Part shown: one piece after another, positions 42,280-49,147 of the stretch
Layout: every line of letters begins with the position of its first letter
Numbering within the stretch: position 1 is the first letter of the stretch
Origin: Raja brachyura
Taxonomy: Eukaryota
Assembly: GCA_963514005.1 (NCBI GenBank)
Contig: OY740804.1
Coordinates: 34,472,001-34,536,000, forward strand
Length of the DNA: 64,000 bases
Reading direction: 5' to 3'
Notes under the pieces: generated by a model
Told to the model about the DNA's origin: nothing
The model's database searches: none
What the model saw: only the letters and a program-made list of their open reading frames with translations
Translations under genes and position numbers: made by a program

Positions 42280-42680
42280 CCAATGCAAATTGGAGGAACA
42301 GCACCTAATTTTTCACTTGGGCAGCCTACACCCCCAGCAGTATGAACATTGACTTCTCTAACTTTAAGTAACCCTCGCTCTCTCGTTGCTCTCTCGCTCT
42401 CTCGCTGCAGTTTTACTGTCTATGACTACATTTTATCTGTGTTTGTTGTTGTTACCTTTTAACTAACAATAGAGCCCTCCGTTTCTTCCTCGACCGCAGA
42501 ACCAACCAATCCCCGGTTACTTCCCGCTCCCCCGCCCTCACATCGGTCTGAAGAAGGGTCTCAACCCGAAACGTTGCCTATTTCCTTCGCTCCATAAATG
42601 CTGCCTCACCTGCTGAGTTTCTTCAGCATTTTTGTCTACCTTCGATTTTCCAGCCAGCATCATCCGTTCCTCCTTAAACA
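42280..42680 (+). mobile_element. Penelope-like element 3' end (GIY-YIG C-terminus plus terminal repeat)
   Basis: KLEEQHLIFHLGSLHP...MNIDFSNFK*, then a pyrimidine-rich UTR and the terminal repeat ctgaagaagggtctcaacccgaaacgtt...ctgctgagtttcttcagcatttttgtctacc. Confidence 0.8.
42545..42578 (+). ncRNA. Minimal type I hammerhead ribozyme motif (Penelope terminal repeat)
   Basis: ggt-CTGAAGA(42548-42554)-a-GGGT ctca ACCC-GAAAC(42568-42572)-GTT|gcc. Catalytic boxes and stem II are present, stem III is the palindrome AACGTT, and stem I is 3 bp. Confidence 0.6.
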
Positions 42681-43143
42681 AGACTTCTTGTGAACCTAAG
42701 TTTCAATGAATAAGGTGGAGTGTTACATGATACGACAGCATTGCTGAAAGTGGTGTGGAAACAATGCATGAAAAATGAACAATGTTTGAAAATTGAGTTA
42801 AGATGGGATGGGTGAGAAGATAGAGGGATTTTACCACGAGCAAAATAATTTTGACTGAATTTGGGAGACATCGTAATTGGGTGTCTAAATGTTCCTATTT
42901 GTCTGGGAAGAAAATAAGGGCAACTGAACTAATTAGATCAATTTGAATTGGTGTGGAATGGAGGGCTGGCAAGGTCATTTGTACAATAGGCCAAAGATGA
43001 TTTCAAAGCCAAACAATTACATTTTGTTTTAGAGTGTAAAGAAGTGTTTTGTTTTTGACGATTGAACATTTCAGTTTAGTTAACATAAGTTTTTGAAAGC
43101 CTGGTTTGGCTGAGGAAGTGGGTAGGCAGAGGAATATAATTAA

Positions 43144-43945
43144 CTAGATTAAGTGGAACCCGTTGGGTCCCAGCTTCACACGGGACGGCTGGTCCCCCAA
43201 CACAATAATCCACCTCCCCACTAATTCCAATATACACACTCACTGACTCGCACACCATATATATGACAGTAAGCTTTCTTGAATCTACTCACACGGCTGA
43301 GTGCGGCCTCTCCACTTTGGGTCTTCCACAATCAGCGTGACCTCTGCACTCACCGGAAATTACGCAATCAGCGCGACCTGTCCACTAAGCGGAAGTCACA
43401 AAATGACTTTTGGACTAAACACAGTCTGACCTAATAAAGCATTAATTCCTTCCAAACAGTCGGACCTAATAAAGCATTGCAGTTTCAAGCACAGGCAGGG
43501 CAGCAGGCCAAAAAACTCATGGCATTGTCATTAAGGGCTAACAAATCATTTATTGCAAGTAAATTGCAGACTCGCAGTTGATTCACAACTTAGAATGATA
43601 ATCGTGGCCTCTCCCTCACGGTCTTGCAGAGTGACAAACTCGCGTCCAGGCATCCGGGGTTTTATAGTCCTTCCCCTCCCCCCCCCCCCCCCCCCCCCCG
43701 GAAGGGGCGTTACCTTCATCATGGCGCTTGACTGGCGAGAGGACCAATCAGCTGATCTCAAGGATTTTTAAACACTTTTATTAACTTTTTCATTTTTCCT
43801 CGATGGGAAAAATCCCCGGGGCTGGCTCAGCGGAGGACTGAGAAAAATGGCCAAAAATCACAGCGATACAGGGTAGCGTTTTTTTCTAAAATCAATATAC
43901 AGCGCAGACAGGAAGTGGTCAAGATGAGACTTTTAATTATATAGA
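43144..43945 (-). mobile_element. Complete non-autonomous Helitron
   Basis: On the - strand: A|TCTATATAATTAAAAG...gggacccaacgggttcc hairpin (43155-43171)...CTAG|T. Inserted at an AT dinucleotide with no TSD. Confidence 0.85.
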
Positions 43946-44370
43946 TGATGAATGGGGACCAAGAAAATTACTCTGATTTGTCTTTTTCAGTTCATCCACA
44001 ACTGTGGCAAATAGTAGATACTAACTGTTTGCTTAAATTACTTTAGAAATTTTGAAGTTTAAAAAAATAATAATATCTAATTCATAGCAATTAGTTATAC
44101 TAATCAGTTACATGGGAAATTTAGACAAAATATCAACCATTCATTTCTTGAATTTCTACTGATATTTATTGTTTCAATTTTGAACTAAAAAAGAAAATTG
44201 CCTGCTATAATTGTTTTTCTAGGACTGTTTATAATTCCTTTTGTAATGGCAGTTAGAAATTAAAAAAGATTAACCAGTTAGAACAGTGTAATCGTTTCAC
44301 TTTACAAAAGTAATGCATGTCAATCATACATGAGTGGTGGTACATTACATTCTGTTCCTTTTTCTCCCAG

Positions 44371-44494
44371 AGCTCCTGAGATCATCCTTGGACTACGATT
44401 CTGTGAAGCTATTGACATGTGGTCCCTCGGTTGTGTTATTGCTGAGATGTTTCTGGGATGGCCATTATATCCAGGCGCATCAGAGTATGATCAG
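44371..44494 (+). CDS. HIPK1: HIPK1 exon 3 (124 nt)
   Basis: tttttctcccag|A GCT CCT GAG: (R)[41 protein letters not shown]|gtatgg. Phase matches exon 2. Confidence 0.96.
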
Positions 44495-47900: not shown

Positions 47901-48268
47901 ATCCCACTACTGGCCACATCTTCCCATCTCCACCCCTTTCTGCAGAGACTGTTCCTTCCGCAACTCCCTGGTCAACTCGTCCCTTCCCACCCAAGCCACC
48001 CCAACCCCAGGTACTTTCCCCTGCAACCGCAGGAGATGCAACATCTCTCCCTTTACGTCCCCCTTCGACTCCATCCAAGGACCTTGACAGTCTTTTCAGG
48101 TGAGGCAGGGGTTCACTTGCACTTCCTCCAACTTTATTTACTGTATCCGCTGTTCCAGGTGTCAATGTACATTGGCAAGACCAAGTGCATGCTCGGCGAT
48201 CCTTTTGCTGAACACCTCTGCTCAGTCCACTTTAACCTACCTGATCTCCCTGTTGCTCAGCACTTTAA

Positions 48269-48872
48269 TGGACCACATTACACCTGTCCTTAAATCTTTG
48301 CACTGGCTCCCTGTGTGTAAAAGGATAGATTTTAAAATTATGTTACTGGCCTACAAGGCACTGAATGGTCTGGGTCCAAAATACATCTCTGACCTACTTG
48401 TTGTATATGAGGCACCTAGACTCCTCAGGTCTTTAGGGACAGGTGTACTCTGTGTTCCCAGGGTCAGAACTAAAAAGGCTGAAGCAGCGTTCAGTTTTTA
48501 AGCTCCACACCTGTGGATCAAGCTCCCTGAACACCTGAGGTGTGCACAGACTGTAAGCTCATTTAAATCGGGCCTAAAAACACTGTTGTTTACTGTAGCT
48601 TTTCCATAACCCAACATGCAGTTAATCTTAACCGTCTAATCTTAACCCTTTTATGTGCTTTTAAAATTGTTTTATTGTTTTAGTGACTTTGTTTTACTAT
48701 TCATGCATTTGTCGTAGTGCTTGTTTTGTAACTTTTGATTATTGGCTATTTTGTTGTCCTGCGTTGTTTGGTTGTTCTGCTGTCTTTTTACTATGTTAGT
48801 TTTTGTTTTCCTGTAAAGCACTATGAATTGCTGCTTGTACGAATGGTGCTATATAAATAAATTTGCCTTGCC
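48269..48872 (+). mobile_element. L2 LINE 3' end nested in the Penelope element
   Basis: DHITPVLKSLHWLPVCKRIDFKIMLLAYKALNGLGPKYISDLL...AFSF. 3' UTR tgtaaagcactatgaattg...tgctatataaataaa with a (ttgcc) tail; TTAA on both sides. Confidence 0.9.
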
Positions 48873-49115
48873 TTAACTCCCCCTCCCATTCCCGATCTGA
48901 TCTTTCTGTCCTGGGCCGCCTCCATTGTCAGAGTGCGGCCCAGCGCAAATTTCGCTTGGGTAGCTTACACCCCAGCGGTATGAATATTGACTTCTCTAAC
49001 TTCAAATAGTCCTTGCTTTCCCTCCGTTACCATCCCATCCCCTACCCAGTTCTCCCACCAGTCTTACTGTCTCAGACTACATTCTAGCTCTGTCCCGCCT
49101 ACTCCCCTGACATCA

Positions 49116-49147
49116 GTCTGAAGAAGGGTCTCGACCCGAAACGTCAC
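49116..49147 (+). ncRNA. Minimal type I hammerhead ribozyme motif (Penelope terminal repeat)
   Basis: gt-CTGAAGA(49118-49124)-a-GGGTC tc GACCC-GAAAC(49138-49142)-GTC|ac. Canonical GUC cleavage triplet at 49143-49145. Confidence 0.68.

Follow-up and report, generated by a model that had tools for sequence, protein, structure and literature searches.

Two copies of a minimal hammerhead ribozyme motif lie on either side of a single exon in a protein kinase gene of Raja brachyura, both in the sense of its transcript. The question raised by this locus is whether they act together on that exon or are simply carried along in its introns. According to the original prediction, the two copies could pair as a dimer, cleave and release the exon from the pre-mRNA. 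The window, by which we mean the whole stretch of DNA analysed (64,000 nt of contig OY740804.1), was read alongside the remainder of the genome. The motifs are best understood as hammerheads at the ends of two copies, truncated and independently inserted, of a Neptune-type Penelope-like element (PLE), likely inert passengers in the kinase pre-mRNA.

Two hammerhead cores around a kinase exon

The host gene encodes a HIPK-family kinase on the + strand (matches to HIPK2/3 chains, E 5e-118). Exons 2 to 4, whose numbers presuppose one non-coding first exon, carry canonical splice sites and a continuous frame (Table 1). Exon 3 is flanked by introns of 22.6 kb (intron 2) and 5.0 kb (intron 3), and its skipping produces a frameshift with a stop inside exon 4.

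Direct reading of the + strand placed both motifs where they had been predicted, ending in GUU (copy 1) and GUC (copy 2), the second site lying 355 nt upstream of exon 4, which starts at 49501. Both copies have the layout CUGAAGA-A-[GGGU/ACCC]-GAAAC-GUH. The conserved core is complete in each (C3 U4 G5 A6 N7 G8 A9, G12 A13 A14, A15.1-U16.1 and H17), and each possesses an extra A between positions 9 and 10.1, the G10.1-C11.1 pair and a stem II of 4 bp. The ACGU palindrome (15.2-16.2) attributed to both copies is kept in both, and neither has a stable helix III. Stem I is as short as had been noted, with 3 bp in copy 1 (one of them G-U) and 2 bp in copy 2. The GUU site of copy 1 is frequent in its subfamily, called 'I', where it occurs in 16 of 35 sampled copies. 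The stable 6-bp helix I and the loop 1-loop 2 tertiary contact of canonical type I hammerheads are absent from both copies (stem I of 2-3 bp, no Rfam match); the hammerhead search that had been suggested, run as an Rfam scan, gave 11 matches to E 10, none of them a hammerhead. Each motif is a genuine case of a ribozyme motif of known class, in an element of known class.

Altogether 13 ends of the family to which both copies belong lie in the window, seven in sense and six in antisense; eight span the core, which is intact in two. The mutated copies listed earlier at 15209, 33095, 45445 and, in antisense, 47310-47337 are all present. The antisense copy at 47237-47343, which the first reading had overlooked as such, is the other end of the insertion that carries copy 2.

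Table 1. Kinase exons, element insertions and hammerhead cores in the window
Feature	Position	Strand	Description
Exon 2, HIPK-family kinase	20643..21735	+	1093 nt, first coding exon; splice sites, open frame
Head-to-head pair of broken family ends, intron 2	33000..33189	.	antisense half a possible pairing partner of either copy
PLE insertion with copy 1, 5'-truncated	42285..42680	+	76% and 83% to intact unit
Copy 1 minimal hammerhead core, GUU site	42548..42575	+	intron 2; older 'I' subfamily
Exon 3, HIPK-family kinase	44371..44494	+	124 nt, APE motif; splice sites, open frame
PLE insertion with copy 2, 2.0 kb	47210..49209	+	blastn 75%, tblastn 56-68% to intact protein; target-site duplication
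Inverted end of copy 2 insertion, broken core	47237..47343	-	complementarity of 90% with the region of copy 2 and 81% with that of copy 1
Unrelated insert of ~600 nt splitting copy 2's PLE remnant	48269..48874	.	gap in alignments
Copy 2 minimal hammerhead core, GUC site	49118..49145	+	intron 3; 'O' subfamily
Exon 4, HIPK-family kinase	49501..49620	+	splice sites, open frame

The parent element, its copies and its RNA

The final codons of a GIY-YIG endonuclease precede both copies. The insertion carrying copy 1 (~400 nt) consists of the last endonuclease codons, the 3' UTR, the hammerhead, a terminal hairpin and a tail; a target-site duplication was looked for around it and not found. The insertion carrying copy 2 comprises an inverted tail and end, a reverse transcriptase (RT) thumb, a CX3CxxC linker, a GIY-YIG remnant, the 3' UTR and copy 2 itself, and is bounded by a target-site duplication matching at 16 of 18 nt (47192-47209 / 49206-49223). 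Judged by their sequences, the two copies are separate insertions from different subfamilies. In a close relative (~99% alike), contigs break at the same repeat edges and none spans either core; from these matching breaks, both insertions seem to be shared with it.

Intact parents were found by a protein search of the genome. The 3965-nt units of a tandem array (G000:C18) are 99.9% alike; every unit contains an open frame of 1033 aa and ends in a hammerhead core identical in every letter to that of copy 2. The near identity of the units indicates that the family was recently active. At another locus (L045), a 1203-aa frame contains RT (E 2e-4) and GIY-YIG (E 2e-3) domains, both below the Pfam cut-offs. 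A DKG motif, the CX3CxxC linker and, at the C terminus, a GIY-YIG with CCHH cysteines were read directly in this 1203-aa frame, and tandem or inverted pseudo-LTRs, a tail and a target-site duplication are all present in the family. By its linker, RT and endonuclease (EN) motifs, the parent fits a Neptune-type EN+ PLE. The cores thus sit in the terminal repeat of an RT and GIY-YIG element, and the proposed identification as minimal type I hammerheads of PLEs was borne out by a parent with the same core. A stem I of 2 bp is also found in the intact elements and in 30 of 41 intact cores sampled in genes.

The 28-nt core of copy 2 has 50,608 exact occurrences in the 2.7-Gb genome and its reversed-pattern control has none, so that the motif is not a chance pattern. 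By extrapolation, the genome would contain ~65,000 intact cores and ~1 million element ends. With such numbers the pair around exon 3 is within chance: the probability of at least two intact cores among eight core-spanning ends is 0.27, and, for an exon whose introns measure 22.6 and 5.0 kb, the sampled density would place an intact sense core in each of them ~1.6% of the time. We infer that the same arrangement recurs around many exons of the genome. The locus itself is of little weight, as one draw from ~1 million element ends.

The 5' ends of copies bear on the life cycle of the element. Among 294 low-divergence copies, 93 start at -6 to 0 relative to C3; only four start within about +26 to +29, at the cut site, where no peak is seen, although one of ~1% would escape and copies consisting of the 3' part alone are harder to detect. 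Among 30 loci with the 5' part of the element, some of them overlapping, seven start at -6 to 0 and none at +28. At copy 2, hundreds of contigs from independent DNA runs also break at 49113-49116. Since 5' ends cluster 0-6 nt before C3, the element RNA probably starts about three bases before the core, leaving room for a stem I of 2 bp only, and the hammerhead would form its first ~31 nt. This RNA would serve as template without being cut, copying beginning internally, ~90 or 128 nt downstream, and its hammerhead is predicted to be held in an alternative hairpin. Cutting would probably require the protein of the element and a partner, and cleavage, if any, would be a protein-assisted step in the element's own complex, the motif presumably being maintained only within that life cycle. 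Penelope is described as having an internal promoter with the downstream promoter element DPE RGACGTGY (PMC2377424), and the core may overlap an initiator/DPE-like sequence, with a match to this DPE at 5/8 positions by eye. Conservation of the core among elements could come partly from promoter or protein-binding function.

Fate of the cores in host transcripts

If such cores cut host transcripts, intact sense cores should be purged from genes. Family ends were collected by profile search from 155 ten-kb stretches (1.55 Mb) inside seven multi-exon genes, the gene strand being taken from Pfam exon matches (Sushi, LDLa) and one gene being assumed between the outermost matches. The 586 ends were divided into 303 sense and 283 antisense (p 0.43). 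Intact cores accounted for 41 of the 323 core-spanning copies, 22/176 in sense and 19/147 in antisense (p 1.0). No purge of intact sense cores was detected in this gene-body sample, in which the 95% interval for the sense share of intact cores (0.37-0.69) is wide enough for a mild one. G12, which lies in a CpG, is lost in ~28% of copies on either strand (48/172 sense, 39/140 antisense). The suggestion that cores might be better conserved than their flanks did not hold after insertion: essential non-CpG core positions were changed in 192 of 2876 cases (0.067) against 475 of 6675 (0.071) downstream (p 0.46), as counted in those 296 of the 323 core-spanning copies that reach position -1, a small fourth group being left out. 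Against this background, copies 1 and 2 are not exceptional in the conservation of their cores.

Elements and their insertions have to be distinguished here. The three main subfamily consensuses have all 28 core letters in common while the youngest departs from the commonest at ~14 of 64 positions downstream (p ~0.001), and the core changes that set sub-lineages apart leave the fold intact: a U-G pair in place of U-A together with a UUCG loop (13 copies, p 6e-10), U for C17, and A/G at 1.1. At the level of subfamilies these changes are all one-sided and pair-keeping, with no two-sided compensatory case. For these reasons the core is taken to be maintained in active elements; once inserted, it is neutral.

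One stratum chosen post hoc departed from this pattern. Below 3% downstream divergence, 8/32 sense cores were intact against 14/22 antisense (p 0.006). A triplicated copy was among its members, the opposite trend appeared in each of the three remaining strata, and in the young subfamily with two duplicates removed the counts became 6/17 sense and 10/17 antisense (p 0.30); this depletion was judged to be noise. A replicate over 150 kb (15 stretches) of spectrin-repeat genes was uninformative, with 35 ends and 0/19 intact cores on either strand. Altogether, the sampled gene bodies tolerate ~13 intact sense cores per Mb (22 in 1.7 Mb) without detectable purge, a family-level negative that lends in vivo support to the idea that, once away from their own element, the minimal hammerheads of PLEs stay silent.

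The first alternative to inert passengers dispenses with cleavage. As inverted repeats across exon 3, with copy 1 or the pair at 33 kb facing the ends at 47.2-49.2 kb, the copies may cause low-level back-splicing, skipping or A-to-I editing, which we regard as possible but unlikely. Exon 3 by itself is bracketed by three pairs of 100-108 nt (81-88%) and exons 2-3 together by one of 394 nt (72%), and circHIPK3 is described as requiring flanking complementary Alu repeats (PMC7242753). Pairs of shorter range would, however, compete with them, both within intron 3 (90%, 1.8 kb) and within intron 2, and at E 1e-6 no pair brackets exon 2 alone. The inverted layout is also common, since 13 of 22 intact sense copies elsewhere have an antisense copy at most 2 kb away. 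Such an effect on splicing would still be more plausible than excision of exon 3 by a dimer.

A further alternative keeps cleavage and confines it to cells where the protein of the element is expressed, probably the germ line: the copies would be cut occasionally, alone or in trans with family RNA, as a by-product without regulatory role. We consider this improbable. The recent activity of the family and the fold-preserving nature of all subfamily-level core changes are in its favor, as is the PLE hammerhead of the anole, reported to cleave with protein assistance (PMC11167929). The lack of any surplus of ends at the cut site among the 294 copies tells against occasional cutting. The anole protein, moreover, is said to need RNA extending 172 nt into the ORF, whereas the two copies in the introns go no further than the terminal end or tail.

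The dimer proposed at the outset, in which copies 1 and 2 pair through ACGU and are both cut, would free a 6,570-nt fragment containing exon 3 (42576-49145), with 5'-OH and cyclic-phosphate ends, or have it ligated. Each core is sound at every core and stem II position tested, GUU is listed among the cleavable NUH sites (PMC3138052), and array partners lie 3965 nt apart, of the same order as 6570. Dimers and trimers of the Schistosoma minimal hammerhead are reported to cleave weakly and its monomer not at all; activity of PLE hammerheads is given as low even for close tandem dimers (PMC4209133). The anole hammerhead is described as inactive without the protein of its element and dispensable for insertion, and RNA-seq is said to have shown no ends where it would cut (PMC11167929).

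Predicted folding also weighs against the dimer. The contact would consist of four bp (ACGU/ACGU, -1.7 kcal/mol) in competition with antisense duplexes of ~100 bp. Equilibrium predictions, which ignore co-transcriptional order and proteins, give such duplexes -146 kcal/mol for copy 1 and -175 kcal/mol for copy 2, and antisense partners within the same pre-mRNA offer each copy between -80 and -175 kcal/mol. When the 2-kb insertion is folded at minimum energy, the entire core of copy 2 is paired with 47307-47343; copy 2 is thus predicted to be held by the inverted end of its own insertion, in a duplex of ~100 bp, instead of pairing with copy 1. Even on their own, copy 2 and the active element reach a stem II probability of no more than 0.02, and both are predicted to prefer an alternative hairpin that would bury stem II and the cut site. 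Copy 1 is predicted to fold better than its parent (stem II 0.29-0.98 and stem I 0.01-0.97, by context), because a change in its loop abolishes the alternative pairing.

Splicing would remove both introns within minutes, which also counts against a dimer. The pair is moreover expected by chance, the insertions are independent, and no purge of intact sense cores is seen, even though loss of exon 3 would break the kinase. Dimerisation with excision of exon 3 is therefore unsupported, given unrelated insertions, no purge, competing antisense duplexes and weak published cleavage, and we hold it to be very improbable. If true, it would provide the first transposon ribozyme pairs that excise a host exon, and many genes would be affected. 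Least credible of all is an extended version in which copy 1, folding better by chance, pairs with copy 2 given the element protein, the 6.6-kb fragment with exon 3 is ligated, then reduced by splicing to a circle of 124 nt, and the linear kinase message is lost; thousands of exons in the genome would then carry such an excision-cassette pair.

Comparison with known systems

Lunse, Weinberg and Breaker (2017) reportedly described small PLE hammerheads with a diminished palindromic stem III that cleave as dimers; stem III is likewise diminished and palindromic here. No report of the family in cartilaginous fish was found in a weak literature search, and supplements to the PLE hammerhead papers may list it; shark or skate terms are absent from supplement file 2 of PMC4209133.

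The closest likeness is with the minimal hammerheads of metazoan PLEs (Cervera and De la Pena 2014, PMC4209133), as far as these are described there. The core boxes, the unpaired base between 9 and 10.1 and the G10.1-C11.1 pair are the same, the palindromic 15.2-16.2 without a helix III loop recurs in the skate family, and so does the location in terminal repeats (pseudo-LTRs), mostly as dispersed single truncated copies. Stem II has 4 bp here against 7-8 bp in Schistosoma, and stem I has 2 bp as in D. virilis. Copy number differs, with the 50,608 exact and ~65,000 intact cores of the skate against ~4,000 in coelacanth and ~9,000 in Xenopus.

The element itself resembles the Neptune-clade EN+ PLEs (Craig et al. 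2021, PMC8557442) in an RT with DKG, a CX2-5CxxC linker and a GIY-YIG with CCHH, and also in its partial tandems, inverted truncated 5' copy, 30-40-bp tail and target-site duplication. The Nematis PLE is described as having the linker finger too, and the Neptune placement proposed here is by motifs. As in the green anole's Poseidon element PAc (Frangieh et al. 2024, PMC11167929), the hammerhead lies at the junction of repeat and ORF, copies would derive from uncut RNA, and 3' ends are fixed, with and without a tail; PAc, however, belongs to a different clade, and it is for PAc that dependence on a protein is reported. Lastly, the kinase locus is like that of Alu-driven circHIPK3 (PMC7242753) in being a HIPK gene with a 1.09-kb exon 2, long introns and inverted repeats, but its strongest pairs bracket exon 3 or exons 2-3 and not exon 2 alone.

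The element and its 5' junctions

In the same genome, the Neptune-type Penelope-like element (PLE) that carries the hammerhead forms a head-to-tail array in which the units of 3965 nt are 99.9% identical and each holds an open frame of 1033 aa together with the hammerhead. This array represents a natural context for testing dimer cleavage. Among 30 loci retaining the element's 5' part (L203-L232), about 10 show its first 180-760 nt running straight into a new start that lies 3-8 nt upstream of C3, the first core nucleotide. Such junctions look like template jumping by the copying enzyme at the RNA 5' end.

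Repeats within and around the HIPK-family gene

Two PLE remnants in introns 1 and 3 constitute a 394-nt inverted pair (72% identity) bracketing exons 2-3, for which an exon 2-3 circle is a candidate product. A second, very abundant family probably corresponds to LINE 3' ends; its copy at 44715 lies 220 nt downstream of exon 3. The G/C-run inverted repeat attracts spurious Rfam microRNA matches.

Coordinates of the PLE array and of repeats in the window
Feature	Position	Orientation	Details
PLE array (L043-L044)	G000:C18:46360000-46377000	head-to-tail	at least 4 full-length units
PLE remnant	17173-17638	antisense	intron 1 of HIPK gene
PLE remnant	47558-48107	sense	intron 3 of HIPK gene
Tc1/mariner-type DNA transposon	12312-13818	-	inverted ends, near-intact transposase
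G/C-run inverted repeat	9780-9902		42-nt arms, 93%
Second abundant family	15271-15700, 40142-40550, 44715-44930, 50692-50930		four copies

The hammerhead core

PLE family ends are fewer in spectrin-repeat genes (35 in 150 kb, L233-L247) than in the first sample of multi-exon genes, and intact cores number 0/19 in the former versus 41/323 in the latter, a difference that is not significant. In the window (49118-49175) as in intact elements, the cut site is predicted to be buried in an alternative hairpin, in old and young subfamilies alike; this folding could possibly provide the hammerhead with a built-in off state. At 49115-49147, the sequence surrounding the 5' hotspot of the family resembles an initiator, and the sites where downstream promoter elements lie overlap with the core. 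Promoter function at the DNA level may be an added contributor to core conservation. Penelope itself is reported to have a downstream promoter element, or DPE (PMC2377424).
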